DNA from: Halogeometricum borinquense DSM 11551
GTDB taxonomy: Archaea; Halobacteriota; Halobacteria; Halobacteriales; Haloferacaceae
Direction: 5' to 3'
Length of the DNA stretch: 32,000 nucleotides
Assembly: GCF_000172995.2 (NCBI RefSeq)
Contig: NC_014731.1
Location: forward strand, 1 to 32,000
Every line of letters starts with the position of its first letter. The first letter of the stretch is position 1. Below the pieces are notes generated by a model. The model searched no databases. It was not told where the DNA came from and saw nothing but the letters and a program-made list of their open reading frames with translations. Shown here one piece after another: positions 3,544-27,873 of the stretch. The position numbers and the translations under genes are program-made.

Positions 3544-3698
3544 TGGGTACTTTCCAGTCCTCATCGAGCTTGAAGACTTTGACGAAACGTTCGGTGACAT
3601 CGATGTTAGACGGTTTGATAGGATTCTTATTTTGTGTAATTGGAGAGAAAATTCTATACGGCCGTACTTCATCGGTCAATAGTACCCAGACAGGAGCC
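3544..3698. promoter_or_regulatory. Shared divergent promoter region between the methyltransferase and the GHKL ATPase
   Basis: 155-bp AT-rich spacer between the two head-to-head start codons (3543 minus, 3699 plus). It contains TATA-like strings such as ttctatac near 3652-3659. No transcript data, so individual boxes are not assigned. Confidence 0.4.
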
Positions 3699-8867: not shown

Positions 8868-10904
8868 ATGACAGACGATACCCCAGACGACCCCGACGGC
8901 GAAGCACAACGAGCCCAGAAACTCCGAGAGACAGTTGATCCCACCACGGCGACGGACGACGAAATCGAGGCCCTGTGTGCGCTCCTCGACGGCCGCCACG
9001 GGCGCTCAGACGCCCACGCAGCCCTGTCGAAGATCTCGTCCCACCCCAACTGCACACGACGTGTCGCAGTGGCCCTCCAGCCGTACCTCGTCCACGAGAC
9101 CAGACGAACACGGGACGAGGCCCTCGACATGCTGACGTGGATCGCACGGACGGACCCGAATGCGCTCGATACCACTATCGAGTGGCTCCTGGAACACTTG
9201 GACACCGAGGACGAGCACATGCGTGACACCTCCGTGACATCCCTCAGGAAACTCGCCGAGGCCGAGCCTGTCCTCCTTCGCCCGCACGTGGACGCTCTCA
9301 TTGGCTCTCTCGACGACGACGCTGTGCGGGCCAACGCAATCAGCCTGTTGTCGACGATTTCACACGCCTATCCAGAAGCGATTGCTCCTGCCAGAGACGA
9401 GTTGATAGCACTGTCTGCGGACGAGACGATCGACGCCAGTGCGATCCCGTCGCCGCTCGGCACCGTCGCATTGGTACGGCCAGATATCATCGATCCTGTC
9501 GTCGAGATGCTGCGAGAGGACCTCGCTGCGGCGGAGCGAGATCAAGCGCGGATCGGGATTGGGAGTGCACTCGGCAGGATCGCTGTGGCATATCCCGAGT
9601 CGGCCCCGATGGTGGTCGAGGAACTGCTGTCACTCGCCGAGACGGATCCTGACGATCGGTCCCCTGATATCGACCGTAGTGTCGTACTCAGTTTTCTCGG
9701 CGGCATCGGGGTCGCACACCCCGAGACGGTCGTTCCCGAACTGGACCGTCTCAGGGCACTCCTTGACGATGACAACCGAATGGTGCGCTCGTCCGCGGTG
9801 GAGACTCTCGGAAACATCGCAACCGTTCGGCCTGCTGCAGTCCGGCCGGCTATCGATGACATTGTGGCGAGATTCGACGACACCAGCGAAGATCTGCAGT
9901 TCGACGTCGTGACGGCTCTCGGGAAGATCGCAGCAGCTGATCCTGAGATCGCGCCGCGCGTCGTCGCGAAGTTGCACGACTGGTTCGAAGACGACACGGC
10001 AGAAGACGAAGCAGTCGGGAGCGACGCGACAGAATACGGGCTGTTCGACTTGACTGGCAGCGTCGAAGACGAGAATGCGGCGACTCACGACGACTTCGAG
10101 TGGCAACTCCAGGAGGACATCATCCGTGCCTACGGCCGAATCGGTGCTGCTACTCCCGACGCCCTCGATCCCGTGATGGACGAGATTCGAGCCTGCCTCG
10201 CTGACGAGAACCTCTCAGCAGAGGCTGCCGCTGCGCTCGGTGAGATCGGCGGTGTTCGTCCCGAGACAGTGGCTCCCGCTGTTGAGGATCTCCAAGAGTT
10301 GCTTGCTGAGGGCCCCTACTGGAACCGGAGAGCGGCCGCCAGCGCGCTCGGAACGATTGGGGCCGCAGCCCCCGAGATGGCCGAACTCGTCGTCGACGAT
10401 CTGCAGCACCGTCTCGCGGACAGCAACTATCGTGTGCGCGCGGCGGCTGCCGAGGCACTTGGCACGATTGCCACCACGGATTCGGACGTGGCCGCACGCG
10501 TCAGCGAGGAGGTACAGCTGCTCCTCGACGACGATGAATGGAAGGTCCGTGCGGCAGCGCTCGAAGCACTCGGACAGATGGGTGCTGCGGATCGAGACAC
10601 AGCCGAGCGTGTCGTCGAGGATCTGCAGACCGGCCTTCGCGATACCGATTCGGACGTTCGGCCGTCGGCAGCGAACGCACTGGCAGCCATCGGCGTTTCC
10701 CAGCCAGTGCTCACCGCCACGGCCGTCGAAGCGCTCGAGTCCCGATTCGAATGTGACGAGGAGTATCTCTTCGTCCGATCGTCGATCGCCGAGGGATTGC
10801 AGGCGCTCAACACCGCCCACTCCGATGCTGTCACAGTGAGCGACACCGAACTGCAGCGAGTCGCCGACGCTGACGTGAACTTGGTGGTGGAGGAGAGTCA
10901 GTAG
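8868..10904 (+). CDS. HEAT-repeat (PBS-lyase HEAT-like) protein
   Basis: 678-aa acidic ORF with an ATG start. HEAT/PBS-type units recur: VRSSAVETLGNIA, RRAAASALGTIGAA, VRAAAAEALGTIA, VRAAALEALGQMGA, VRPSAANALAAIG. Spacing is about 31-38 aa in the C-terminal half, with more degenerate units in the N-terminal half. Confidence 0.85.
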   Translation: MTDDTPDDPDGEAQRAQKLRETVDPTTATDDEIEALCALLDGRHGRSDAHAALSKISSHPNCTRRVAVALQPYLVHETRRTRDEALDMLTWIARTDPNALDTTIEWLLEHLDTEDEHMRDTSVTSLRKLAEAEPVLLRPHVDALIGSLDDDAVRANAISLLSTISHAYPEAIAPARDELIALSADETIDASAIPSPLGTVALVRPDIIDPVVEMLREDLAAAERDQARIGIGSALGRIAVAYPESAPMVVEELLSLAETDPDDRSPDIDRSVVLSFLGGIGVAHPETVVPELDRLRALLDDDNRMVRSSAVETLGNIATVRPAAVRPAIDDIVARFDDTSEDLQFDVVTALGKIAAADPEIAPRVVAKLHDWFEDDTAEDEAVGSDATEYGLFDLTGSVEDENAATHDDFEWQLQEDIIRAYGRIGAATPDALDPVMDEIRACLADENLSAEAAAALGEIGGVRPETVAPAVEDLQELLAEGPYWNRRAAASALGTIGAAAPEMAELVVDDLQHRLADSNYRVRAAAAEALGTIATTDSDVAARVSEEVQLLLDDDEWKVRAAALEALGQMGAADRDTAERVVEDLQTGLRDTDSDVRPSAANALAAIGVSQPVLTATAVEALESRFECDEEYLFVRSSIAEGLQALNTAHSDAVTVSDTELQRVADADVNLVVEESQ

Positions 10905-12537: not shown

Positions 12538-14343
12538 TCAGGCGAAATCGGTGAGGTTCGTCGCCGTCAGGTTCTCCGTATCCTCTTCCAGTTCGTGGTC
12601 AAGGGAACTCCGACTGGGGACCTCAAACTCGACAACCGGAGTGTCCGACGAGACAATGTCGATGATCGTGTGCAGCTCATCCATGATCCCGACCGCACCG
12701 TCATGTGTACATCCCGTGATTGTACACCAAGCTCGTGATCGCGTGATCGCCACGAACACTTCGTTTCGCGCCTGCACAAGCTCGCGATACGGGTTTGTGA
12801 TTGCATTGTTGAGTCCAACGACATACACCGAGGCAGCTTCATTTCCTTTTGCGAGATGAATCGTCGAGATCGTTACCTCACCCGGCCGCGAAAATTCGGT
12901 TCTGTCACCTTCCCACGCACAGGTCGCTCCTAAATCATGGGCGCGCAGCAATGACTGAAGCTGCTGACCGCGATCCTTTGCGTCCAGCCCAAGCGGGACG
13001 ACGAGGATACGCTCCGGAGGTAAGCCCTCCTCACGAACATCAGCCACAACCTGGTCAACGACCCAGTCGAGCTCTGCAGCTGGATCGTCGAACGCTTCGG
13101 CCGACACGAATGGCCCGGCTGTATCAAACGTAGAGAGTGGATGTGGTGAGTTTGCTTCAGGCCGCTGAAGACGTGCCTTACTCCCTGTTTTCCGGAAGTC
13201 ACCATCGACGTCATAGCCGAGATTCTCCCAGCCGTCTTGCCGCGTAATTGCTTGGACAGGACCGCCATCACGGAGGAGTCCCATCCCAAGGACGTGTGCA
13301 GTCAACAGAACCTCCAGGGGTGCGCGATAGGATTTCCGCATGATGTGGCTTTTTTGCACCCCGTTTGAATACGACCCGCTCAGGTCAACAACAGGATCGC
13401 CGGTGTCGTCAACGCCGAAAATTTCCTTGGGGCTCGGGGCACGCAAACTGTGGAGATTTTGTGCCTCGTCGTAGCCCCAAATGAGCCGGTTGGACGAGTC
13501 AAGTGCAGCGAGACACATATTGAAGAAGTGCGGACCGAAGTCTTGTGCCTCATCGACGAGAATCGCATCAAAGAGGTCTGGGATGTCCCCGGTCGCAAGC
13601 AGTTCAGCCGCCACCGCTTCCTGGGGATCAGTGTCGGAGCCGAATTCTGCACGAGCATCGGTCACCGAACGGAAGGTAGCGTTTGGAGTTGCCTCTGCGA
13701 TTCGTTTGTATATGCCCTCGCCAGTTGTGTGGCCACCCCACCCGTGGATGATCTCGATGGACGAATCACTCTCCGCCAGTGATTGTCCGTTCGAGAACCG
13801 CCTGTAGAATCGTTCCGTGAGATCGGTAATGTGATCGTAGAGACTCTTCGTTTGGAACGTCAGCGCGATGGTCCAGTCCTTGTGATCGACCGCCATTTTC
13901 GCCGCCTTCATGGCAAGGAGGACGGTCTTCCCAGACCCAGCGATCCCTCGAATTTGCTGCGGTCCAGGTGGGATCCGCATGCCGATCTTTTCCTGTTTCA
14001 AATCGAACTTCGCAAGCTGACTCGTGACGTGTTCGTAGTAGTCGCGTCGCGTCTCAGGATTTGCGGGCGGCGACATACTGATATCGCTGATTGCCTGTCC
14101 GCAGCTGAGGACAGCACGTGCTGTGTCATATTCGGCTGAGGTTAACGGGTCAAACGTGCGGATCGCGTCAAGTTGCTCCCGGAGTGCCACAGGCGTTAAC
14201 TCATCACCTAACAGCACGCGAGGGGCGCTTGGCCCCGTAAAGCCGCGTGCCTCCCATTCCTCGCGGGTGATATTCGGGAGGACAACAAACGGATTCATCG
14301 GGATTGCTACCTGTCCACCGTCCAAGAGCTCTGGTTCGTCCAT
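12538..14343 (-). CDS. Superfamily-1 (UvrD/Rep-like) helicase-family ATPase
   Basis: 601-aa ORF. It has Walker A GIAGSGKT (13924-13947), motif II ILVDEAQDF (DEAQD = 13540-13554), a UvrD_C-like ISTIHLAKGNEAASVYVVG and motif VI VAITRSRAW. About 125 N-terminal residues have no recognisable motif, and no nuclease motif was seen. Confidence 0.85.
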   Translation of the reverse strand: MDEPELLDGGQVAIPMNPFVVLPNITREEWEARGFTGPSAPRVLLGDELTPVALREQLDAIRTFDPLTSAEYDTARAVLSCGQAISDISMSPPANPETRRDYYEHVTSQLAKFDLKQEKIGMRIPPGPQQIRGIAGSGKTVLLAMKAAKMAVDHKDWTIALTFQTKSLYDHITDLTERFYRRFSNGQSLAESDSSIEIIHGWGGHTTGEGIYKRIAEATPNATFRSVTDARAEFGSDTDPQEAVAAELLATGDIPDLFDAILVDEAQDFGPHFFNMCLAALDSSNRLIWGYDEAQNLHSLRAPSPKEIFGVDDTGDPVVDLSGSYSNGVQKSHIMRKSYRAPLEVLLTAHVLGMGLLRDGGPVQAITRQDGWENLGYDVDGDFRKTGSKARLQRPEANSPHPLSTFDTAGPFVSAEAFDDPAAELDWVVDQVVADVREEGLPPERILVVPLGLDAKDRGQQLQSLLRAHDLGATCAWEGDRTEFSRPGEVTISTIHLAKGNEAASVYVVGLNNAITNPYRELVQARNEVFVAITRSRAWCTITGCTHDGAVGIMDELHTIIDIVSSDTPVVEFEVPSRSSLDHELEEDTENLTATNLTDFA

Positions 14344-16073: not shown

Positions 16074-16374
16074 GGCAAAATCCGGATACCACGCGCCCAA
16101 CCAACCAATCGTTTTGCTGTACTGCTTACTAGCTATGAAGAGACTCACCGAATTCACAACATTGTCACCGGCCAGTGCCGCATCCGTTACGAATCGTTCA
16201 TGCACGGAGCCGAGGCAGGTCCACCACTGCACCGTCGCCCCGTTCCTCATCGCGAACCGCCGCGTGCTGTCCCGTCGAATTGGCGGAAAGGTATGCCGAA
16301 ACAAGTCAATAGCGAGCGAAAAAGACTTCGCTTCTGTCGGAACTGTTTACTCCGTATCGTCCCTTGGCCAACCA

Positions 16375-16635
16375 ATGCGAGTCCTCGACCGGAAACGATA
16401 CTCCTACGTCTTACTGGCCCGCGACGGGGAGTGGATTCTCACGTTCTTACTCGGCGGCCCCGTCGAGCGCGACGTCTCCGTGCGATTGACGCCCGTAGAG
16501 ATCACTGCAATCGAAGCCGGTGACTCGTCGGCCGCCGACCTGGTCGAGAAATTCAGCGCTGACCTATCGGCCACCGAGGACAGACAGATAACTCCCACCG
16601 TCTGGCCTGCAAAGGACGCCGAGAGTGTGTCGTAG
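16375..16635 (+). CDS. Hypothetical 86-aa acidic protein
   Basis: An internal ATG at 16375 in the 16114-16635 ORF gives MRVLDRKRYSYVLLARDGEWILTFLLGGPVERDVSVRLTPVEITAIEAGD. This has haloarchaeal-like acidic composition, whereas the upstream part of the track ORF looks non-coding. Confidence 0.4.
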   Translation: MRVLDRKRYSYVLLARDGEWILTFLLGGPVERDVSVRLTPVEITAIEAGDSSAADLVEKFSADLSATEDRQITPTVWPAKDAESVS

Positions 16636-16693
16636 TGCCGCAGGTCGTTCCAACAGCGCTCTTCGGTTTCGATCGAGGCGTGTCTGTCCAGCG

Positions 16694-16927
16694 TCAGGAT
16701 GAAGTTCCTCCCTCCACAACCTGAAACTTCTCGATGTGGATCGCCGAGATGCAACGGAACACCCGCTTTCGCCCAGATTCGTCGACAGGGTCGGTTGCCG
16801 TCTCCGTGACATCGGTTGGGGTCCCGCCAGTATCAGTCGGAGTTCCCCCGTTATCGTCGTTCGAACTCAGGCACCCGGCGAAAGCTGAAAGTGAGAGTGT
16901 CGCAATGAAACTCCGTCTATATTTCAT
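16694..16927 (-). CDS. Small Tat-type lipoprotein, possibly frameshifted or truncated
   Basis: From the ATG at 16925-16927 the sequence reads MKYRRSFIATLSLSAFAGCLSSNDDNGGTPTDTGGTPTD. It has a twin-arginine RRSF motif, a lipobox AGC and a Thr/Pro/Asp linker. The ORF stops after 77 aa, and a protein-like continuation (RNFILTLDRHASIETEERCWNDL) lies in another frame. Confidence 0.45.
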   Translation of the reverse strand: MKYRRSFIATLSLSAFAGCLSSNDDNGGTPTDTGGTPTDVTETATDPVDESGRKRVFRCISAIHIEKFQVVEGGTSS

Positions 16928-16959
16928 ACTCTCAATAATATCAACTGTACTTTCAATCT

Positions 16960-16967
16960 GCCTATTT
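16960..16967. repeat. Left 8-bp target-site duplication of IS6 copy B (GCCTATTT)
   Basis: GCCTATTT lies immediately outside the left terminal repeat and is identical to the 8-mer at 17713-17720. Confidence 0.85.
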
Positions 16968-17712
16968 GGCACTGTCTAGTTAGTGACCTCCTCAACCGGC
17001 GTACGTCCGTTGAGCGATTGATGCGGTCGTTGAAAGTTATAGTATTGCGCAAATTGTATGAACCACTCGCGGACGCTTCCGTGACTGCCCACCCACGAAT
17101 TATGGAAGCGGTCGACTCGCATTTTGAGGGTATGAAACCATTTTTCGATGAGGTTTCGCTCGACGTAGTCAAGCCGACCGCTCAATCCTAATCGAGAGAG
17201 GGCAGTCTGATAGCCATAGCCATCAACCAGAAACACAGCATCTGAGAGATCATGTTTCTCGGAAAGTCGATGGAGAAACGCAGCAGCCGGATCGGTACCA
17301 TGCCGTCCAAACAACTCGACATCGAGAATCAGCTTCGTCTCGATGTCTATTGCGGCGTACAACCAAGACCACTCACCGTTGATTTTGACAGCGGTCTCAT
17401 CAACCGCAACCCGCTTCGGCGTTGCCTCAGGCGGGTTGTGACCGCTGTCAGCCAGTCGATGTACCCACTGCCAAACAGCTTGATGAGAGCGTTCAACGCC
17501 GAGTATTCGAAGAATTTCTTTTGTCTCTCTAAGCGAACACCCGGTCGCGTGGAGCTGGACGGCGAACACCCTGACGGGTGTCGCCGTCCGCTCACGCTCC
17601 CAAGTTTCTTCATAATCCGTCTCAAAGCACTCGCTGAGCAGGTCTGCGAGCATCTTGACCAACTAACTCAACGACCTGCTCGTTCCTCAAACTGGCTTAA
17701 CTAGACAGTGCC
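16968..17712 (-). mobile_element. IS6-family insertion sequence (ISH-type), copy B, intact, with 8-bp target-site duplication
   Basis: 745 bp. The terminal inverted repeats are GGCACTGTCTAGTTA at 16968-16982 and its reverse complement at 17698-17712. It is flanked by a perfect direct repeat GCCTATTT, the 8-bp size typical of IS6. Confidence 0.92.
16976..17653 (-). CDS. IS6-family DDE transposase (intact)
   Basis: It carries VAVDETAVKINGEWSWLYAAID (first Asp region, a hallmark IS6 string), FLVDGYGY (second Asp) and ERNLIEKWFHTLKMR (Glu region). I prefer the ATG at 17653 (MLADLL); the track start at 17662 is a TTG three codons upstream. Confidence 0.9.
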   Translation of the reverse strand: MLADLLSECFETDYEETWERERTATPVRVFAVQLHATGCSLRETKEILRILGVERSHQAVWQWVHRLADSGHNPPEATPKRVAVDETAVKINGEWSWLYAAIDIETKLILDVELFGRHGTDPAAAFLHRLSEKHDLSDAVFLVDGYGYQTALSRLGLSGRLDYVERNLIEKWFHTLKMRVDRFHNSWVGSHGSVREWFIQFAQYYNFQRPHQSLNGRTPVEEVTN

Positions 17713-17720
17713 GCCTATTT
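17713..17720. repeat. Right 8-bp target-site duplication of IS6 copy B (GCCTATTT)
   Basis: Identical to 16960-16967 and immediately outside the right terminal repeat. Confidence 0.85.
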
Positions 17721-17897
17721 TCTTGCAACAAATGTTCGACATGCAAACGAACTATCACCGTGAGGATGCGAATCCGGGACGGTGCGTTTCGGAAAAACCC
17801 CTGCCCGAATGTATCGTTCGGGACCGAAAGCGTGCCGTGACACCGCGAAATCGGGCACCGTCTCGCGATCCGTCTCGGTGGGAGAATACGGGGCTTC

Positions 17898-18302
17898 TCA
17901 GAGGTTGCTTTCGAGCAACGAGACGATTGACTCCATCCGTTTGTCGACTTTGTCCATGTTGGTGCACGGTTCTTTGTCCACCGTGAGGACTCCATCTTCG
18001 TAGCTGATGTCACCGGTCATCCCTGCTTCGTTCTTGAACACGACCGACTCGAGGTCCGCCTGGAGGGCTTCCCGCCCCAGTTCGTCGCTACAGATCGCCT
18101 CGAAGGCATCGATTGTCGGCTGGAAGTACACTTTCGTCCATCCCTCGAACCAGAGATCTTCGTTGACTCTCTCGTCGATGAGTGATTCCCACTCGATATC
18201 GAGACCGACCTGGAAACCGGCTGCGTCGTCCATCGATTCCTTTAGGGACGGCATTTCATCCTCCTTGAACTCCTTTACTTTTCGCTTATCTCCTAGATCC
18301 AT
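17898..18302 (-). CDS. Acidic hypothetical protein (134 aa)
   Basis: ATG-initiated ORF with strongly acidic, haloarchaeal-type composition (EDEMPSLKESMDDAAGFQVGLDIEWESLIDERVNEDLWFEGW). No motif recognised. Confidence 0.6.
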   Translation of the reverse strand: MDLGDKRKVKEFKEDEMPSLKESMDDAAGFQVGLDIEWESLIDERVNEDLWFEGWTKVYFQPTIDAFEAICSDELGREALQADLESVVFKNEAGMTGDISYEDGVLTVDKEPCTNMDKVDKRMESIVSLLESNL

Positions 18303-18336
18303 TAATTTTTCACTCGGCTATAATATTTATCCTTAG

Positions 18337-18546
18337 TCATTTAACACTACTTATTCGAATCGTCCTTTCACCGCGAGACGCACCGCCTGACGACGGATTT
18401 GGGACACCTGTGTCGAAAGCTTCGCTATCGGGATAGACGTCAACCAGTGTTTCCAGGCGACCCAAGTACTCTTGCTGGTCCGGCTCGGGAACCGGATACG
18501 CCGACCACGGGTCAGCTGTCGGATACTTTTTGATCGGAAGAAACAT
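18337..18546 (-). CDS. 69-aa ORF carrying one copy of the xLxRLExLxxxYPD repeat motif
   Basis: MFLPIKKYPTADPWSAYPVPEPDQQEYLGRLETLVDVYPDSEAFDTG. The string YLGRLETLVDVYPDS matches the unit that repeats about 30 times in the divergent giant gene starting 10 nt away. It could be a real small paralogue or an inverted gene fragment. Confidence 0.35.
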   Translation of the reverse strand: MFLPIKKYPTADPWSAYPVPEPDQQEYLGRLETLVDVYPDSEAFDTGVPNPSSGGASRGERTIRISSVK

Positions 18547-18555
18547 CTTCAGAGT

Positions 18556-20139
18556 ATGAACGACGAGCCCTCCGGCGGAGACGACGTGACCACTGATGAG
18601 ACCGATTCCATCGTGGTCGAGACACTACTCGACGCGCTGAGCCCAGCCGAGGAACTCGGCGACGGAAGGGTCGATGAGGTCGACGACCGTCGGAGGCAGG
18701 CCGAGCAACTCGATGGACTCGTCGCCGAACGCTCACCTGACGAGGGACAGTCTCACCTCGTCGCCGTCGCATATACTGCGATGGTGGACGCTGTCGAGGC
18801 TGGTCGGTTCGAGCGTCTCGCCGTCCCCATCGACCGCCTCGCGACTCTCGTCGGAAGACACCCGTCGTCCGTGCATCTCCGAACGCTGCTGGCTAGGATT
18901 CTCGCCAAGGCAACGTGGGACGAGGGTGCGGCGGGACGGTTCGACGCGCAGGCGGCTCACCTGGGCCACCTCGAATCGCTGGCAGAGAGGGCGCCAGACG
19001 ACGAGGTCACGACTGCCCTCGCACGGGCACGCTTTTTCGCCGCATATCACACGGGGGCGGCCGAACGCTTCGACGAACTCGGGACGCATATCGACCGGCT
19101 CGACTGGCTGGTCGAGGACACAGACGACGTGGGGGTACGACAGGAGTTCGCCCAGGCGTTAGTCAACGCCATGATCGACGCGGGCAAGGCCGGTCGTCTC
19201 GACGCCCTCGACGATCGATTGAGCCGCCTCGATCTCCTAGTCGCCGAGTACCCACACTCACAACTCCAGGTGTCACTCGCGAATGCCCTTGCCATCACCA
19301 CGTTCCATTCCCTGGAGGCAGATCGCGTCGACGACTGTCAGACCCACCTCGACCGCCTCGACGACCTCGCCGCCAAGTACCCGAACACGGACGCCATCCA
19401 GGGCCACTGTACCAGCGCACACTGCCACGTGGTCACCTCCCAAGGCGACCAGCCTGTATGCGAGCGGTCCCTGGACCGTCTCGAAACGCTCGCGACGGAC
19501 AACCCCGACACAATCCCGGTCCAGCTCAGGGTATCCCAGGCCTTCCTCGGCGCGGCACTCGCCGGCCGAAAGCTCCCCGACGGGTTCCGACCCCGTCTCG
19601 AACGGCTCGATGTCCTCCTCAGTGCCGACGGTAACTCCGATACCGACTGGCAGCAGCGACTCGCTGAGACCATCGTTTCCACCGGCCTGGGGCCCGTGGA
19701 CAGCGCTCGACTCGGCGACAGCCTAGAGGCACTGCTCGACAGTCTAGACTCCCTCGTCGCGGACCACCCTGACGACGACCTGCTTCGTCTCGTGTTCGCC
19801 CGGGCGCTCCAGTGGACCACGGCTGCCAAGTGTAAGGCGGGACAGTTCAACGCAACGGAGGCGTCGATCGATCGTCTGGAGCGGCTGGCAACCGAGACAC
19901 CAGACTCCGACCCGGTCCGCCACGTGTTCGCCCGGACCAGCGTCAACGCAGGTATCGACGCGGCGAGGCCGGACGACTCGACATCCTCGAATCCCACATC
20001 CACCGGCTCGCGCGCCTGGTGGCTGACCATTCGGACCCGCACTTCCGTAGCGCCCTGGCGAAGGCCCACCCCGTCGCGACAGTACACCAAGGGCGGGCCG
20101 CCCGATTCGACCAGGTCAAGGCCCATCTCGACAGCCTAG
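18556..20139 (+). CDS. Giant 44-aa-repeat alpha-solenoid protein, 5' segment (frame ends after a 1-nt frameshift near 19962)
   Basis: The ATG at 18556 (MNDEPSGGDDVTTDE) has no signal peptide. About 11 units of the form HLDRLDxLAxxYPDxxxVQxxLAxALxNAxxxxGxAGRFDxxxx follow. After VNAGIDA (about 19962) the translation turns into Arg/Ser/Pro/Thr-rich junk, while the repeat continues in the frame of the next ORF. Confidence 0.75.
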   Translation: MNDEPSGGDDVTTDETDSIVVETLLDALSPAEELGDGRVDEVDDRRRQAEQLDGLVAERSPDEGQSHLVAVAYTAMVDAVEAGRFERLAVPIDRLATLVGRHPSSVHLRTLLARILAKATWDEGAAGRFDAQAAHLGHLESLAERAPDDEVTTALARARFFAAYHTGAAERFDELGTHIDRLDWLVEDTDDVGVRQEFAQALVNAMIDAGKAGRLDALDDRLSRLDLLVAEYPHSQLQVSLANALAITTFHSLEADRVDDCQTHLDRLDDLAAKYPNTDAIQGHCTSAHCHVVTSQGDQPVCERSLDRLETLATDNPDTIPVQLRVSQAFLGAALAGRKLPDGFRPRLERLDVLLSADGNSDTDWQQRLAETIVSTGLGPVDSARLGDSLEALLDSLDSLVADHPDDDLLRLVFARALQWTTAAKCKAGQFNATEASIDRLERLATETPDSDPVRHVFARTSVNAGIDAARPDDSTSSNPTSTGSRAWWLTIRTRTSVAPWRRPTPSRQYTKGGPPDSTRSRPISTA

Positions 20140-22682
20140 AAGCGCTGGCGGCAGACGCTCGCCACGAGGACGAAGTCCTGACCCACTACGCCAATGCCCT
20201 GGCGGACGCCGCCCAGTACGCGGACGACGCCGGTCACAGCGAGGGCTACTGGAGCCGGTTCGACCGATTCGAGGCCCTGGCTGCGGACGCTCCCGATAGC
20301 CGCGTCCCGTTCCACCTCTCCAATGCACTCTTCGACACCAGCAGGATCCTCCTCGATCCCGTCTTCGACGAGGAATCGGACGTCCAGGTCGATTTCGGGG
20401 TGATCGAGGCTTGTCTCGACCGGCTAGACCGGCTCACCGACGACCACCCCGAGGACACCGAGATACAACTGCAATTCGCGAGGGCACTCGCGAATCGCGT
20501 GTGTGCAGCCCCCTTCGCGGACGACGGGAGTCACCTCGGCGAGACGTCCGTCCGCTTCCACCTCGACCGTCTCGACGCCTTGGCGGCCAGGTATCCGGAC
20601 GCAACGTGGATCCAGTCCGAACTGGCCAGTGCCCTGTACAACGCGGCGGTTGCAGCGGCCGACGGTGATCACGTCGCGGACCGACGGTCCGCCCAAGCAC
20701 GTCTCGACGCCCTGGCTACCGACTACCCCGACACCGACGATGTACAACGCATGCTCGCGAAGACCCTCTCGCTGGCTACGTTCCACGACTCCGAGGCCGG
20801 TCAGTTCGAACGGGTCGAGACACACCTCGACCGTCTCGAAACCCTCGCGTTCGACCACCCGGCCGGCGACGCGTGTCAGTCCGAACTCGCCAGTGCCCTC
20901 GCAAACGTCGCTCCCTACCAGCGTCGGGATGGGTACGTCGACGACCTCGCGGCCCGGTTCGACCGATTCGAGACGGTGTCCATCGCCCATTCCGACGTGG
21001 GGATCGCCCGGTCCCTCGCGAAGGGGCTGGTGAGCACGGTCCGGTCGCTCGTCGTCCCGGTCTATATGGACGGCAGTGACAGACGACTGGAGTACGACAC
21101 CATCCAGCGGTACCTCGACCGGCTGGAGGGGCTCGCAGGTGAGTATCCTACAGACGAGGAGATTCATCGACGGCTCGCCGAAGGCCTCGTCACCGGCGTC
21201 ACTGCTGCGTCCCACCTCGCACACGACGGTCGTATCGAGTCCGACGAGCACGAACGCTACCTCGATCGCCTGTCGGAACTGGCGACCGAGTTCCCAACGG
21301 ACGACGGAATCACAGCGCAACTGGCGACGGCCCACCGCAGGGTCGCGCGGGACGCCGGGGGAGTCGGTACCTTCGAGACCCAACAGCGCCACCTCGACCG
21401 CCTCCACGAGTTGGCTTACGACCACCCACACAACGATGACGTGTTGTTCGAACTCGCCCAGGCGCTGGAGGACGTCGCGTCCGTCGACGGCGATCCCGAT
21501 GCGGTCGTCCCAGTGGATTGTGAGAGTTACTTCGACGTGGTCGAGGCCGCCGCTCTCGCGTACCCAGCAGACGTGAACGTCCTTTTTCAGATTTCTAGAG
21601 GCCTCGTCACCGCGGCGGCGTCCGAAGGGAACGCTGGTCGGTTCTCGGAGCTCCGTGCGTGTATCGACCAGCTTGAGGAAATGGTCACCGAGTACCCCCT
21701 CCAGAGCGAGATCCGTATCCAGCTGGCCGTCGCCCACTTCAACGCGACGGCGCCAGCCGGCAAAGCCGGTCGGTTTGACCAGGTCCACTCACACCTCGAC
21801 CGTCTGGAGACGCTGGCTGCCGAGTATCCCGACACCAGACGAGAGGTTCACGAGCGGCTGATTAAGGCTCTGTTCAACACCGCGAAATACCAGGGGCAAG
21901 CCGACCGGTTCGACGCCCTGACCGACACGATCGACCGGGCCGAGGAACTGGCCGCGACCTACCCATCCAGTGACGAGGTCCAGCGGACCTACGCCCTGAC
22001 CCGTTTCACCGCGGCCACGGCCGCGAGACGAGCCGACCGGTTCGAGGAGTGTCGGATCCACATCGACCGCCTGGACGACCTCGTGACCGACTATCCCCAC
22101 GTCCCCGAGATCAGACGCCGGTTCGCGAAGGCGCTCCACGGCATGATGGACGCGTTGTGGAGCGCCGACCGTGTCGATGAGGCACGGGCCACGATGGACC
22201 GCCTCCGATCGGCGGCAGCAGCGTTTCCGGCTGACGAGGAGCTGCAGTGTGTCTCCGCGCGAGCTCTGGTGAACCACTCACGGAATGCTGGTGCGGCGTG
22301 TCACCTTGACCTCCTCTCCGACCACCTCGACCAGCTGGTGACCCTCTACGAATCGTATCCCAGCGGGGAGACTGCCCTCCGCTTGGCCCAGGGACTGTTC
22401 AACACCGTCAGATATCGAGGGGAGGCCGGGCAGTTCGATGATCTCTTCCGGTCGCTCGACCGCCTCGACGACCTCGCCGCCAAGTACCCCGACGGTGACG
22501 TTCCCTACCTGTACGCCAAAACCCTCTCTATCGTCTCGAAATACCTAGGAGAAAACGGCCGGTCCGAGACGGCTGAGCAGTGTCTCGGCCGCATTGAGGC
22601 ACTGGCCGCGGCGCACCCGGCTGACGAGGTGATCCAGTCACGGCTGTCCGAGACACGCCAGCGAAACGCGGTTGAGGAATGA
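20019..22682 (+). CDS. Giant 44-aa-repeat alpha-solenoid protein, 3' segment (continuation of 18556-19962)
   Basis: About 19-20 further units are present (HLDRLETLAFDHPAGD, YLDRLEGLAGEYPTDE, HLDRLHELAYDHPHND, HLDRLETLAAEYPDTR, HIDRLDDLVTDYPHVP, SLDRLDDLAAKYPDGD). The frame is open upstream of the track's GTG start at least to 19920. From 19962 it reads GEAGRLDILESHIHRLARLVADHSDPH, completing the unit broken in the 5' segment. Confidence 0.8.
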   Translation: MADHSDPHFRSALAKAHPVATVHQGRAARFDQVKAHLDSLEALAADARHEDEVLTHYANALADAAQYADDAGHSEGYWSRFDRFEALAADAPDSRVPFHLSNALFDTSRILLDPVFDEESDVQVDFGVIEACLDRLDRLTDDHPEDTEIQLQFARALANRVCAAPFADDGSHLGETSVRFHLDRLDALAARYPDATWIQSELASALYNAAVAAADGDHVADRRSAQARLDALATDYPDTDDVQRMLAKTLSLATFHDSEAGQFERVETHLDRLETLAFDHPAGDACQSELASALANVAPYQRRDGYVDDLAARFDRFETVSIAHSDVGIARSLAKGLVSTVRSLVVPVYMDGSDRRLEYDTIQRYLDRLEGLAGEYPTDEEIHRRLAEGLVTGVTAASHLAHDGRIESDEHERYLDRLSELATEFPTDDGITAQLATAHRRVARDAGGVGTFETQQRHLDRLHELAYDHPHNDDVLFELAQALEDVASVDGDPDAVVPVDCESYFDVVEAAALAYPADVNVLFQISRGLVTAAASEGNAGRFSELRACIDQLEEMVTEYPLQSEIRIQLAVAHFNATAPAGKAGRFDQVHSHLDRLETLAAEYPDTRREVHERLIKALFNTAKYQGQADRFDALTDTIDRAEELAATYPSSDEVQRTYALTRFTAATAARRADRFEECRIHIDRLDDLVTDYPHVPEIRRRFAKALHGMMDALWSADRVDEARATMDRLRSAAAAFPADEELQCVSARALVNHSRNAGAACHLDLLSDHLDQLVTLYESYPSGETALRLAQGLFNTVRYRGEAGQFDDLFRSLDRLDDLAAKYPDGDVPYLYAKTLSIVSKYLGENGRSETAEQCLGRIEALAAAHPADEVIQSRLSETRQRNAVEE

Positions 22683-22737
22683 CCGTTTCCACGGCCGTTC
22701 CTCTCGTGTCGAAGGTGTCGGCGTTCGTGGAGACGGT

Positions 22738-25700
22738 CTAGTCGGCCGTCCCGTCGGATTCGAAGGCGGCCGCGGCGAGGTCGTCGCCCACGACTTCCCG
22801 AAGCCCGTGGTCGAGTCGAGCGACGTAGTCCGCGCTGACACGTGGGTTGGCAGTCGAGAGTTCGTCGGCCGACCGTCTGAACGTCCGTTTGAGCGTGTCG
22901 TCGGTCCGGACGATGCCAGCCTCAGCCGCAGTTTCGATGGACGCACGGACAGCGGCGACGTAGGCTTCGATCTGTTCGAACGGTTCGCCACCTTTCACCC
23001 CTTCCACGACGATGTCGGCGTACACTTCCTCCAGGAACCCGACAGGATCATCGACGCTCGCACTCGCGGCGAACGCGCGGAGTTCATTGTCGAGGCGTCG
23101 CCGCCACGTCGTCGTGTCGTCCTCGACCGCTTCGACCGTATCGACGTAGGCGCGCGTATACACGGACGCGACGAACTCGGCGGGGTCCTCGGGTACCGCT
23201 CGCGTTGCGGTCGCCTCGATTCGTTCGGTGACGACATCCAGCCACGTCTCCACGTTCGCGTGGTCGCTGTTGGTGCGGCCGACGACAGCGAGTGCCCGGG
23301 CATAGATCCGTTCGAAGATACCGGCCCGCTCGATGCCGACCCACTCGAAGTCGGCCCGTTCCTCGGCGGCGGTGAGGACCTCCGTAACGCCGAATCTGAC
23401 TTCCGCTGGTTCGGCTTCGACGGCGAGCGCGAGTGCGGTTCCGAAGACGGAGCTGACGTAGTTCACGGGATGTGGAGGGTTATCCGCCGCCGTTGCCCCG
23501 GTTTCGACCTGAGAGAGTACTGCCTGTACCAAACGGTCATGCGACCGGTTGCCGATATCGGCCCGCGTCACTACTGTTTGGAGGACCGCCGCATCCACTT
23601 CCGCGAAGGCGTCGAACCACTCCATCTTCGTCGGCCCGTCGATCTCCCAGCGGCACTCACGGAAGGACCTGGCGAGCGAGGTGATCCATTCCTGGGAGAC
23701 GCTCGCCTCCCCGTTTGCCGCCCAGTTCACTGCTGCATCGCCAAAAACGCCATCTAGGAACGCGACTGGGTCAGTGACCAAGTCGCCCGCGGCTGCCACC
23801 GTCTCGATGCGGTCGGTGAGCGCCTCGAACCAGACACGCTCCCGGCGTGGCGAGATTCCGGACGCCGAGTCGCGTACCCGCCGACGTGAACTCTTGGACG
23901 ATGAGTCGTCGTCGAATCCGTGTACGTGGGTTGACAGCGCCTCGCGGTAGACCGCCGTCAGGAATCGCTCTCGATGGGCTGTTTCTGTCGCCGCGCCCCG
24001 GGTTACGGACCTGTCGTACAGTTCGATCCAATCCTCGAACCGTGGCGAGTCCGAAAACGGAAGCGCGCCGATGCCGTAGGGGCCGTCGTTGACGCCGTCA
24101 GCGCTCTGCTCGACGCTGGCAAACGCCGCGAGGGCTGCCGCGTGGAGGTCAGCACGCACCGTCCACGCCTCGGCAGCGAAGTCCGACGCCGCGACGGTGT
24201 CGACGAGCCGGTCGCACGCACCGAATAACCGTTCCGCACGGTCGAAGTTGCGGGCTGCGACGACGCGCCGGACGGCCTGCCCGTAGACCTCGGCGACGAA
24301 CGCCACAGGGTCGTCGAGATCCGCGGTCGTCGCGGTTCGGCAGAGGTCCTCCCCGACCGCCACCAGCCAGGGCTCGATCCGTTCGTCAGGACATCCGTGT
24401 TCGAATACCCAGAAGCCGAGTGCGCCAGTGTAGGCGTGCCGGAGCAACTCCGCTCGATTGTCCTGGCGCTGTATGAACACGACCGAATCCCTGATCTGGG
24501 AGCCGAACGCGTCCACCCATGGCGAGAGATTGTCGGGAGAACACGCTGCGCCAGCCACGGCCCCGATTGTGGACGCGAAACTGTTCCCGATGACGAACGC
24601 TGCGAATCCCTCCTCGTTAGTTGCGGCCGCCTGTTGGACGAGTGCGGCGACCGGCGCGAACGCATCGTCGGCCGCCGTGGTGTCCGCAACAGTCTCGATG
24701 ATTCGCTCGGTCATCGCGCCGTAGACGCGACAGCGGAGCGTCAGTCCCGGTTCTTCGGAGATTTCCCCCGCATCGACCGTCCTGTGAAGGACTTGATCGA
24801 CACACGCGAGTGCGCCGTGATTCGGTCCCGAACCGTCTGTCGGCCACGCGAGCCGTGCCAGAGCGTTCGCGAATGCACCCACGAACGGTTCGTGGTCGCC
24901 GCCGACGGAGTCGCGTCCGGGCGGAGTCGCGGTCTCGTTCGTGAGAGCCACCGCACGGTCAGCAATGGCTTCGATCCACTCGTCAGTCGTGGGGTTCTCG
25001 CTCGCCACCGCTGCCATGGCAGTGCCGGAGACCGCTCCTCGGTACCTGATGGCCCCGTCGGTATCGCTTCGATTCAGCCCGACATCCCCAACGAGGTCGT
25101 CGAACAGTGCCAGCCACTGTTTTGCGGCACTCGGTCGCGCGGTCCGCGCGACAACAGCGACGGCGTCGGCGAGTACCCGACCCACGAACGCCGCGTCGAG
25201 ATCTTTGTCGGGCATGCCAGCGATTGCCGCCAATGTACTCTGGTCCGTGATTTTCTCCACGTCGAGCGTCAGACGGGACGGGTGTCGGGTGTCCGGCCAG
25301 TCCATCGCCGAAAGGAGGTCGTCGGCGACCGCTCGGGATGTCCGATCAGGTGCGACTGCGATATCGTCTAGCTCGAACTCGGTTCGGTCGCGCCAGGCGG
25401 CGACGTCGGCACAGCCGGTCCGGTCGGCGATGGCGTCGAACTGCTCGCGGAACTCGTCGTCACAGATGAGCAGTGCACCCGAACAGGTGCCGTCAGCGAC
25501 CCACTCGACCAGCGACCGAACCCCCGCATCACTCGTGATCCGTGCTGGCCCGGCACCGTAGGTTGCGACCACGACCGCGTCCGACGTGGCGTCGATGCCC
25601 ACTCTGATGTAGTCGGGGCGGCTGAGATCGGAGAGTCTGACCGTCGCCCCCCACGTCGTGAGTTCCGTGGCGACGTTCGCTGCAAGCCGTCGCTTCCCGC

Positions 25701-26970
25701 TCGCTTTCGGTCCCGAGAGGACGACGACCCCGCCATCGAGTGCATCGACGACCTCGTTGACGCTGACCCCCGCCGGTCCGTCGTCCGTTTCGGGGCCGTC
25801 GTCCGAGTTCGGGAACTCCCGCTCTGCTGCAGCCGTGTGTAACGTCTCTGGTTCCTCCCAGTGCCAGGCACCGACGAGTGGAGCGGAGCCGTACTCGTCG
25901 GGTCCGACCGCGGCCTTGTCCAGTGACGATCCGACTGCTCGCATGCCAGCTCGGATCTCCTCGAAGGCGGCACTCGCGTTGGTGATGGCTGTCTCGGTTT
26001 CGGGCTGGGCCGCCAACCGCTGGCCGATCTTCGTCCGTATCGACTCGGACGCGAACACCCGAAGGTGATCGATCGTTCCCGGTGGGAGATCGAAGGCGAT
26101 TTCGAGCGCTTCGGCGGCTCCCGCCAGCGGCCGATGGCGAACGAGCGGCTCGAACCACGCCGTGTCGTCGGCGGCGAGCGAACTCGCGACGAGAGCGAGT
26201 GCGGTGGCCACCGCTGGCGACAATGCAGTCGGGTCACGACCGGCGTCCTCGGCACGTGGATGGAGCGACGAGATGAGTTCGAATGTCGCCTCACCCAGTG
26301 GTTCGACCGTGATATCACAGTCACCGACCACCGTCCTGACATCCGGTCCGACCAGAACCGTTTCGGACCCGTACTGCGAGAGCGAGAGGAAGGCCGCGGG
26401 TGTGACGGTCTCCTCGATGGTCCCGACCCGCTCTTGGAGGCCCTCGTCCGCGAACTCGTAGTTAGGATAGGTGATGCGTTCGACGAGGGACGCGCGATCC
26501 TCGTTACTCAGTCCAGCAGGACGTCGGTGGCTGGTGCGCTTGCGGATTTCGTCGATCACATCGCTGCTCTCCGCAGGCGGCGTTCGAACCACGAGCACTG
26601 AATCGACCTGCCCGACGATGTCACTGGACATGGGGAGATCGCTTTGGCATAACCAGTCGAGACTCCGTGGCCGCGTTACGAGGACGGCACCTCCGGGACG
26701 AGCGAACAGGGCGTTCATGCTGGGCGGTTCTCCGTCCGTCGAGTAGTCTTCGTCGCTCAGATCGAACGTCGCCGCGACAAAATCGTCGATGACCACGAGT
26801 TCGTCGTCTTCGACGGCGCTTGCCGCCGCGAGGCGCTCGACGGACGGGCCGACCTGCCGCAGGTGATGTGACTTCCCAACGCTGGGTGCCCCGAGGACGA
26901 GTGTAACTTCGCCTGGGCTGACCGCGTTGCACAGTTCGCCAGGTGTGACCTCTCGAATAGCATCTTCCAT
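22738..26970 (-). CDS. 1410-aa tandem P-loop NTPase with a long alpha-helical repeat C-terminus (STAND/NLR-like architecture)
   Basis: The first P-loop has GAPSVGKS (26869-26892) with LVVIDDF about 28 aa later. The second has SGPKASGKR (about 25690-25716) with ALLICDDEF about 75 aa later. Residues about 660-1330 (22981-24993) carry at least six copies of a degenerate unit ending in DPVAFVAEVYGQA, DPVAFLDGVFGDA, HPVNYVSSVFGTA, DPAEFVASVYTRA, DPVGFLEEVYADI. There is no signal peptide. Confidence 0.85.
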   Translation of the reverse strand: MEDAIREVTPGELCNAVSPGEVTLVLGAPSVGKSHHLRQVGPSVERLAAASAVEDDELVVIDDFVAATFDLSDEDYSTDGEPPSMNALFARPGGAVLVTRPRSLDWLCQSDLPMSSDIVGQVDSVLVVRTPPAESSDVIDEIRKRTSHRRPAGLSNEDRASLVERITYPNYEFADEGLQERVGTIEETVTPAAFLSLSQYGSETVLVGPDVRTVVGDCDITVEPLGEATFELISSLHPRAEDAGRDPTALSPAVATALALVASSLAADDTAWFEPLVRHRPLAGAAEALEIAFDLPPGTIDHLRVFASESIRTKIGQRLAAQPETETAITNASAAFEEIRAGMRAVGSSLDKAAVGPDEYGSAPLVGAWHWEEPETLHTAAAEREFPNSDDGPETDDGPAGVSVNEVVDALDGGVVVLSGPKASGKRRLAANVATELTTWGATVRLSDLSRPDYIRVGIDATSDAVVVATYGAGPARITSDAGVRSLVEWVADGTCSGALLICDDEFREQFDAIADRTGCADVAAWRDRTEFELDDIAVAPDRTSRAVADDLLSAMDWPDTRHPSRLTLDVEKITDQSTLAAIAGMPDKDLDAAFVGRVLADAVAVVARTARPSAAKQWLALFDDLVGDVGLNRSDTDGAIRYRGAVSGTAMAAVASENPTTDEWIEAIADRAVALTNETATPPGRDSVGGDHEPFVGAFANALARLAWPTDGSGPNHGALACVDQVLHRTVDAGEISEEPGLTLRCRVYGAMTERIIETVADTTAADDAFAPVAALVQQAAATNEEGFAAFVIGNSFASTIGAVAGAACSPDNLSPWVDAFGSQIRDSVVFIQRQDNRAELLRHAYTGALGFWVFEHGCPDERIEPWLVAVGEDLCRTATTADLDDPVAFVAEVYGQAVRRVVAARNFDRAERLFGACDRLVDTVAASDFAAEAWTVRADLHAAALAAFASVEQSADGVNDGPYGIGALPFSDSPRFEDWIELYDRSVTRGAATETAHRERFLTAVYREALSTHVHGFDDDSSSKSSRRRVRDSASGISPRRERVWFEALTDRIETVAAAGDLVTDPVAFLDGVFGDAAVNWAANGEASVSQEWITSLARSFRECRWEIDGPTKMEWFDAFAEVDAAVLQTVVTRADIGNRSHDRLVQAVLSQVETGATAADNPPHPVNYVSSVFGTALALAVEAEPAEVRFGVTEVLTAAEERADFEWVGIERAGIFERIYARALAVVGRTNSDHANVETWLDVVTERIEATATRAVPEDPAEFVASVYTRAYVDTVEAVEDDTTTWRRRLDNELRAFAASASVDDPVGFLEEVYADIVVEGVKGGEPFEQIEAYVAAVRASIETAAEAGIVRTDDTLKRTFRRSADELSTANPRVSADYVARLDHGLREVVGDDLAAAAFESDGTAD

Positions 26971-27208
26971 GAATTCCCTACGACCGCTCCCGCCGACGAC
27001 TGCGTCCGGGCGGCAGACCCCGCCGAGTGTATCTCGTCAGTAAGTCTACTTGTGAGATAATTGTTTGCTGTTGGAATAGCCATCGACGAGTCACTGATAC
27101 GTCACCTGAAGATATTTTCCCGCTTGTCCACCAAGAGTCGCTATACAGTGTGACCAGCCGACGAGAGCACCCAAGAACGAGGATGCAAGGACACAACGAA
27201 ACCGGATA

Positions 27209-27700
27209 GTGGCCATCCCAAACATCTCGGATGACCGTCATCGAGTCGATACGCACTTCCAGCGTTTGTAGCTCATAGCGGGCCAACAGTCCAGCAATCC
27301 CAAGCTGCAGCGCGACGTATTCGGCGGTATTGTTTCCCGTCCGGGAGCTGACGGGACGGCCGAGCCGGGCGAGTTCGGTTTCGGTAGCGTCCATGATGAC
27401 CGCGCCTGCACCCGCTGGGCCGGGGTTGCCGCGTGAACTTCCATCGACGTAGAGGATGAACGAGTTGCCCGTCGGCTCCGGGGCCGGTGGCTGGCTGAGA
27501 TCCGACACCAGCACGCTGTCGAGCGCGCGACGCAACTCGGATGGGGTGGTTGTGGGATCAAACAGGCCACCATATCCGGGCACGGCGGCATCGATGGCGT
27601 CGGTGGCAGCTGCTATCTCGTAGCCGATACGTGCAAGTACCTCATCGACGAGCGTCGCGAGTGGTGAGCAGTGTTCGACCGGGAGCGGTTCCTCAGTCAC
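27209..27700 (-). pseudogene. rnhA: Type-1 RNase H, N-terminal two-thirds (gene disrupted, probably by inversion)
   Basis: From the GTG at 27698-27700 the sequence reads VTEEPLPVEH...SFILYVDGSSRGNPGPAGAGAVIM...TGNNTAEYVALQLGI...VRIDSMTVIRDVWDGH. This supplies the first Asp, the Glu and the second Asp of the RNase H DEDD set in canonical order. After His (27209-27211) the ORF continues to 26978 as non-RNase-H-like sequence. The track ORF's 5' extension to 27859 is antisense to the C-terminal fragment. Confidence 0.8.
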
Positions 27701-27705
27701 GCCAG

Positions 27706-27873
27706 CACGACGACCCGAGGGAATCGGGTGTTGAGACGTACAGCACAGCCATCGAAGCAGCACTAGCGACGATTCCAGAACACCGGTATACACATCTCGC
27801 TGACAGTGATCCGAATCCTGCTGACGCGTTGGCGACAGTGGGCGCCGATATCGCGGCATTGGGACCCGGGTAG
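27706..27873 (+). pseudogene. rnhA: Type-1 RNase H, C-terminal fragment on the opposite strand
   Basis: The last 55 codons of ORF 27541-27873 read HDDPRESGVETYSTAIEAALATIPEHRYTHLADSDPNPADALATVGADIAALGPG. The H-x5-N-x2-AD-x-LA pattern is the C-terminal catalytic His/Asp segment of RNase HI. It joins seamlessly to ...DSMTVIRDVWDGH from the minus-strand part. Confidence 0.7.

Follow-up and report, generated by a model that had tools for sequence, protein, structure and literature searches.

The window analysed here comprises the first 32,000 nucleotides of contig NC_014731.1 of Halogeometricum borinquense DSM 11551, and the feature followed up is a gene for a long protein built of tandem 44-residue repeats (the repeat gene), which reads as two overlapping open reading frames (ORFs) on the + strand. 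ORF1 runs from an ATG at 18556 to 20139 (its longest form in the ORF list starts from a TTG at 18472), and ORF2, in a different frame, occupies 20019-22682 and overlaps ORF1 by 121 nt. Both spans agree with the initial annotation, which had proposed a single gene split by a one-nucleotide frameshift and had located the break by re-using g19962. When this g is used twice (18556-19962 joined to 19962-22682), a product of 1375 residues is obtained whose sole stop is the terminal one, the shifted frame being free of stops from 19962 to 22682. The join via gac gcg (19957-19962) translates as ...NAGIDAGEAGRLDILESHIHRL..., the junction of the repaired protein reads ...NAGIDA before and GEAGRLDILESHIHRL... 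after the joining point, and a peptide spanning it would contain ...NAGIDAGEAGRLD.... The break falls exactly at the boundary between repeat units 9 and 10 (residues 469/470), and the unit spacing is kept across it, with anchors at residues 438, 482 and 525. The first 79 residues form a head with 22 Asp+Glu against 5 Lys+Arg. The 1375 residues contain neither a Walker A motif nor any hydrophobic segment. Table 1 collects the features of the locus.

Table 1. Features of the repeat gene and of its surroundings, in window coordinates.
Feature	Position	Strand	Basis or remark
5' gene part, unshifted frame; acidic head and units 1-9 (residues 1-469)	18556..19962	+	ORF list, translation
Acidic non-repeat head, 79 residues	18556..18792	+	first significant unit at residue 80; without Pfam domain
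Array of 29 tandem ~44-residue two-helix units, residues 80-1375	18793..22679	+	unit profile, autocorrelation, AlphaFold2
Frameshift site, GG here and GGG in intact orthologues (one G deleted)	19962..19963	+	DNA alignments
Out-of-frame tail of ORF1, 58 nonsense codons (ARPDDSTSSNPTS...), then TAG	19963..20139	+	translation
3' gene part in the shifted frame; residues 470-1375 and TGA; mechanical ORF2 from GTG 20019	19962..22682	+	translation
T-rich stretch ggatactttttgat, ~27 nt upstream of ATG 18556	18522..18535	+	read from sequence
Block with ~95% DNA identity to Haloferax mediterranei pHM500, 9.4 kb	17713..27091	.	blastn of the window
Acidic 134-residue gene, divergent from the repeat gene	17898-18302	-	block member
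1410-residue double-P-loop gene, convergent with the repeat gene	22738-26970	-	block member

Orthologues were taken from a plasmid collection and from contigs holding homologues of a neighbouring gene. The protein WP_004061050.1, annotated as "hypothetical protein", is encoded by a single 4128-nt coding sequence in NZ_CP039140.1 and NC_017944.1 (Haloferax mediterranei pHM500); its 1375 residues are collinear with those of the repaired window protein, at 96.5% identity. One ORF is likewise present in a second H. borinquense strain (GCA_040679015.1), with 95.4% identity and no gap along the full 1375 residues. At the DNA level, the alignment with H. mediterranei shows exactly one indel at the break site (19961/2), where the window reads GCGGCG and the intact coding sequence of NZ_CP039140.1 reads GCGGGCG. 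The latter reading is shared by all three intact orthologous sequences, i.e. those of two H. mediterranei pHM500 assemblies and of the second H. borinquense strain. One missing G thus explains both ORFs and sits where it had been placed from the letters alone, and the orthologue survey proposed in the initial annotation returns single ORFs, not consistently two genes. A scan of genome contigs with the repaired protein gave 34 pattern matches, none of which was confirmed. A further H. mediterranei assembly, CP007554.1, carries an extra C (position 13138 of its locus, corresponding to window position 21691) that splits the gene into parts of 1051 and 319 residues. As two other assemblies of the same strain are without it, this C is assembly-specific, and on comparison of the sequences it is probably an error of that record.

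The periodicity of the repaired protein is pronounced. Anchor motifs of the form (L/I)DRLxxL are spaced 41-52 residues apart, mostly 43-44, and autocorrelation with BLOSUM62 scores peaks at a lag of 44 over the whole protein (z = 10.5 against 200 shuffles), at 43 in the part before the break (z = 7.3) and at 44 in the part after it (z = 11.2). A hidden Markov model (HMM) of the unit, seeded with 25 units, identifies 29 significant units over residues 80-1375, the four outside the seed scoring E-values between 1e-6 and 7e-11; a thirtieth candidate at residues 37-70 is not significant with this model (E 0.22). The initial annotation, which counted about 30 units from about residue 60, was hence right on the periodicity, while the solid count is 29 and the array starts at residue 80. 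The 44-column alignment of the units has the consensus GxAGRFDxLxxHLDRLExLAADYPDDDEVQxxLAxALxNA, and insertions of 2-9 residues separate a few of them. Tandem Repeats Finder detects no DNA-level array with a period of 132 nt; the units are too diverged for it, which indicates that the array is old at the DNA level. The sole long identical stretch of DNA between units is an exact 35-bp direct repeat (19348-19382 and 22455-22489, in units 5 and 28) encoding LDRLDDLAAKYP, which could serve as a substrate for recombination within the array.

Concerning the fold, units 22-29 (residues 1025-1375; 21627-22679) were modelled with AlphaFold2 from a 17-row alignment of the arrays of the window protein and its relatives. 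The eight-unit model has a mean predicted local distance difference test (pLDDT) score of 95.6, a predicted template modelling (pTM) score of 0.88 and sixteen helices, each unit consisting of a 17-residue helix, a 4-residue turn at YPD, a 20-residue helix and a 3-residue turn at AGR. Foldseek against the PDB retrieves TPR superhelices (OGT, SPINDLY, LGN, consensus TPR, subunits of the APC, Rap and MalT domain III) with E-values from 5e-5 to 1e-3 and template modelling (TM) scores of 0.27-0.49, and the highest TM-scores, 0.50-0.55, belong to importin-alpha. By this model the fold class is that of a TPR-like two-helix alpha-solenoid with unusually long helices, to which all solved structures are distant. 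Like canonical 34-residue TPR proteins (OGT/SPINDLY, CTPR) and the long-unit LGN, the array would stack antiparallel two-helix hairpins into a solenoid, and it shares with canonical TPR a conserved Pro after the unit's first helix as well as small residues at the helix contacts; it departs from them in its period of 44 instead of 34 and in the low TM-scores given above. Armadillo repeats (42 residues, importin-alpha) are similar in period and gave the best scores of the fold search, but have three helices per unit whereas the model has two. The unit profile also has weak matches to 4rv1, 4rzp and 4hxt, which we take to be designed armadillo-type repeat proteins.

At the sequence level the assignment is looser. 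The initial annotation had likened the protein to TPR or Sel1 solenoids of two helices per unit, of no named family; the fold agrees, and the canonical sequence models do not. Among the TPR models of Pfam, none passes its threshold on the repaired protein (TPR_Slam, the only one listed, scores 20.4 bits against a cut-off of 35.2), Sel1 is absent from the Pfam matches at E ≤ 0.01, the period is 43-44 where canonical TPR has 34, and hhalign, comparing the unit profile with consensus TPR, falls short of significance at a probability of 0.75% and E 0.075. Named families do pick up the repeat or its relatives in part: TPR_14 and TPR_Slam, and DUF6584 (PF20225), for which the whole protein scores 63.7 bits with the cut-off at 27. 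By itself, no stretch of the protein is significant for DUF6584 (the best covers profile positions 12-45, i.e. 34 of 171 model positions), so the score is the sum of many weak hairpin matches.

The 44-position profile of the unit was searched exhaustively against 1.84 billion representative proteins, which yielded 448 representatives at E ≤ 1e-3, of which 157 reach E ≤ 1e-10; a word-indexed search with the unit alignment found nothing. Most matches are about 1000 residues long and carry 5-16 units in their C-terminal half. Among the best 45 relatives the domains are AAA_16 (22), nSTAND_NTPase5 (11) and SIR2_2 (7), with further Pfam matches to TPR_14 (18), TPR_Slam (17) and DUF6584 (14), the last of which is an annotation of the orthologue P0001 and the relative P0003 as well. 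Their N-terminal halves share the consensus GRxxE...GxxGxGKSRL of a Walker A region. The relative P0002 is a planctomycete protein combining TIR, NTPase and repeats, and two acidic proteins of haloarchaeal type, P0003 (which bears the name of a Haloferacaceae genome bin) and P0004, join an NTPase to repeats whose units are 33-38% identical to those of the window. A search of the literature for DUF6584 and for the protein accessions found nothing.

The relatives are therefore largely STAND/NLR-like NTPases (AAA_16/nSTAND_NTPase5, some with SIR2 or TIR, and of Avs5 type), the C-terminal arrays of which are generally held to be the ligand-sensing part. The window protein resembles them in the ~44-residue unit with the core LxxLxxLAxxxPDxxEhxxxLAxxLxNA, and the unit profile finds them at E-values down to 1e-157. 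It differs in that their 5-16 units follow an NTPase, often together with an effector, whereas here 29 units stand with neither domain; none of the 150 best-scoring representatives has more than 16. Pfam and NCBIfam detect no NTPase family in the repaired protein, so that, of what defines STAND proteins, it has the homologous sensor-type array and lacks the NTPase. PADLOC recognises some of the relatives, only via their SIR2 domains, and one matches Avs5; for the repeat protein it gives no match in the 906-residue part and only a chance-level one (E 0.053) in the 469-residue part. An Asn ladder such as that of OGT or importin was considered as the binding mechanism and discarded, as the relevant column holds Asn in just 9 of 29 units.

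To judge the age of the lesion, the repaired window gene was compared with its H. mediterranei counterpart. There are 49 synonymous and 50 non-synonymous differences, corresponding to a synonymous rate (dS) of 0.049 and a ratio of non-synonymous to synonymous rates (dN/dS, or omega) of 0.34, which is 0.31 before the break, 0.35 between the two lesion sites and 0.39 beyond them. In the three-sequence comparison the window branch has 30 synonymous and 34 non-synonymous private changes, and the intact lineages have 18/15 and 40/31; omega, in our own calculation, is about 0.38 for the window branch versus 0.28 and 0.26 for the intact ones. The window gene has no further stops or indels. Taken from substitutions, these figures suggest a young lesion, and they are as compatible with a recent deletion as with fragments that still matter.

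We consider it likely that the locus is one gene on a DSM 11551 plasmid that has lost a single G and become a young pseudogene, the intact form of which encodes a long TPR-like solenoid. The intact gene would give a soluble, acidic, cytoplasmic protein of 1375 residues, with its 79-residue head followed by 29 units, each formed by two antiparallel helices of roughly 17 and 20 residues and closed off by a YPD-type and an AGR-type turn. Of this, the analysis demonstrates how the gene is built, the repeat, the class of fold, the lesion and the existence of intact orthologues. With the G lost from the GGG run at 19962-19963, translation would stop after 469 genuine residues and 58 out-of-frame codons, leaving a young pseudogene or, at best, a gene in two pieces. 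By analogy with the relatives, the intact protein may act as a stand-alone superhelical ligand-binding scaffold, a role that we infer from homology and fold; it is probably an NTPase-less derivative of a STAND sensor array, expanded to 29 units and carried on a mobile plasmid block. Several points weigh against parts of this explanation. Both DSM 11551 assemblies may possibly share one culture-specific mutation that is missing from the original isolate. Omega on the window branch is barely raised, and selection on two fragments could persist. The role of the array is drawn from its relatives only, none of the PADLOC defence models matches the repeat protein, and only 9 of 29 units retain the Asn that is conserved in the LAxGLxNA motif of the relatives, so that the mode of binding may differ.

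Other readings of the break itself need to be weighed against a real and inactivating deletion. The missing G might be an error of sequencing or assembly, with the gene of DSM 11551 intact: the site is a short G run, and the assembly-specific extra C of CP007554.1 shows that such errors occur in this gene. However, a deposited 527-residue protein matches ORF1 exactly, out-of-frame tail included, and is present both in the complete genome (ADQ68831.1) and in the later Illumina draft (ELY28737.1), whose contig AOHT01000022.1 is 100% identical to window positions 17623-23139 (5517 bp). The isolates of that draft study were sequenced on Illumina (Becker et al. 2014, PMC4230888), and "Halogeometricum borinquense DSM 11551" and "Halogeometricum borinquense" appear in its supplementary files as two distinct sets of genome data (PMC4230888). 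As the same frameshift was seen by two sequencing projects, a real mutation is much likelier than a read error; the comparison of records indicates that the deletion in DSM 11551 is probably real, and an intact gene is very unlikely. The initial annotation had preferred a mutation or a sequencing error over programmed frameshifting, and of these the sequencing error loses its ground with the agreement of two projects. Recoding, by programmed -1 ribosomal frameshifting or in some other way, would yield the full-length protein, and both frames are open for 121 nt around the site while omega is not clearly raised in the window lineage. Yet the three intact orthologous sequences are in frame with GGG, which makes the lesion strain-specific and excludes programmed frameshifting as a conserved feature, and C GCG GCG is not a slippery heptamer of the form X XXY YYZ. 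No such heptamer is seen by eye at 19955-19965, as had been noted from the start; with neither conservation of the frameshift in orthologues nor a slippery sequence, the site does not qualify as one of programmed frameshifting, and recoding appears extremely improbable. It is unlikely, too, that the two pieces persist as working solenoids, ORF1 supplying 469 genuine residues and the tail, and ORF2 starting afresh at or near GTG 20019. The position of the break between units 9 and 10 would make whole-unit solenoids of both pieces, and further decay is lacking, with the omega of about 0.38 already mentioned. But among the called genes of the draft contig only ORF1 is present, the exact product from GTG 20019 is absent from the protein collection, and low decay is equally expected of a very recent mutation, there being only 64 branch-specific substitutions.

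A different kind of reading concerns the role of the intact protein, which might be the detached sensor or decoy of a two-gene NLR-like system with the convergent 1410-residue double-P-loop protein. The genes lie side by side in convergent orientation in the window, as they do in H. mediterranei (where the neighbouring protein is WP_004061051.1) and in the second H. borinquense strain; relatives fuse the repeat to NTPases, and P0004 joins an N-terminal P-loop domain resembling that of the neighbour (pairwise E 0.002) to these very repeats. Those three genomes are, however, the only ones where the repeat gene adjoins a gene of the 1410-residue family. Elsewhere a member of the family is usually followed by conserved genes of 105 and 86 residues, and it is the 105-residue gene that adjoins the 1400-residue gene in H. 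mucosum, Natrinema altunense and Haloarcula hispanica. When profiles of the neighbour family and of the STAND relatives are compared, only the Walker A motif is aligned (28 columns, probability 57%), and PADLOC has no match here either. We find such a partnership doubtful and do not claim a two-gene system with this neighbour, given the adjacency limited to the closest clade and the Walker A-only alignment; a functional pairing is possible and is not supported. The broader idea, that a free-standing 29-unit sensor or decoy derived from STAND proteins acts in trans, perhaps with the 1410-residue protein, in a two-polypeptide conflict system that moves between haloarchaeal megaplasmids, is a rather speculative one and quite improbable; if true, the lesion of DSM 11551 would be a natural knockout of it.

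Returning to the reading of a young pseudogene, its practical consequence for annotation is that the 527-residue "hypothetical protein" and the uncalled downstream stretch should be merged as a frameshifted pseudogene of the WP_004061050.1 family. The analysis also defines a rare long-TPR unit of 44 residues (448 of the 1.84 billion representatives), used mostly as the C-terminal array of STAND NTPases, of which the repeat protein is an unusual array-only case. With an intact copy in the genetically tractable H. mediterranei and a natural knockout in DSM 11551, there is a way to probe a detached array. None of these findings overturns current understanding.

Regarding the surroundings, the T-rich stretch upstream of the ATG (Table 1) is, from its letters, a possible candidate for the TATA-like box of a leaderless transcript. 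The block shared with pHM500 is about 95% identical across two genera, which points to a recent transfer between megaplasmids, as read from the alignment. The repeat gene is 97.6% identical to the H. mediterranei copy versus 96.7% to that of the other H. borinquense strain. The family of the 1410-residue protein comprises 29 clusters, with full-length identities of 45-90%, and is confined to haloarchaea. The protein itself has two conserved Walker A motifs, GAPSVGKS and GPKASGKR, and a long helical C-terminal part with loose repeats of its own (DPxxFhxxVY...). It has no sequence match in Pfam, NCBIfam, PADLOC or the PDB, and the model of its N-terminal part (pLDDT 71) finds only generic double-NTPase matches with TM-scores below 0.2.

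On the left the block is bounded by an IS6-family transposase (16976-17662, - strand, with 16160-16967; 205 bits to transpos_IS6), which replaces most of a 430-residue gene of H. mediterranei, the last ~190 bp of which are left in the window. Just outside the block on the other side, the C-terminal half of a 293-residue ORF (26978-27859, - strand) carries an RNase H domain, and its N-terminal half has no match. The block lies in a variable plasmid region with DNA methylase, HEAT-repeat, UvrD-like helicase and RNase H-like genes. Within 1789-5963 an N6/N4 DNA methylase of 627 residues (- strand) overlaps the start of an 806-residue + strand ORF without family match, and the two may form a restriction-modification pair. 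A 678-residue HEAT-repeat protein is encoded at 8868-10904 (+ strand), and a 601-residue protein with a UvrD-like helicase C-terminal domain at 12538-14343 (- strand).

The acidic 134-residue protein has no family match. It is about 90% identical in Natrinema altunense, where its gene lies directly upstream of that for a 1412-residue homologue of the 1410-residue protein; this homologue is only 65% identical, and the conservation of the 134-residue protein is unusually strong for a small protein. HEAT-repeat proteins are also found near these two genes in Natrinema altunense. SUKH/SMI1_KNR4 and Imm49 genes lie on either side of the module in the second H. borinquense strain (6316-7686 and 18925-19443 of that locus); these are, we presume, immunity-protein families of polymorphic toxin systems, and would suggest a conflict-gene island.

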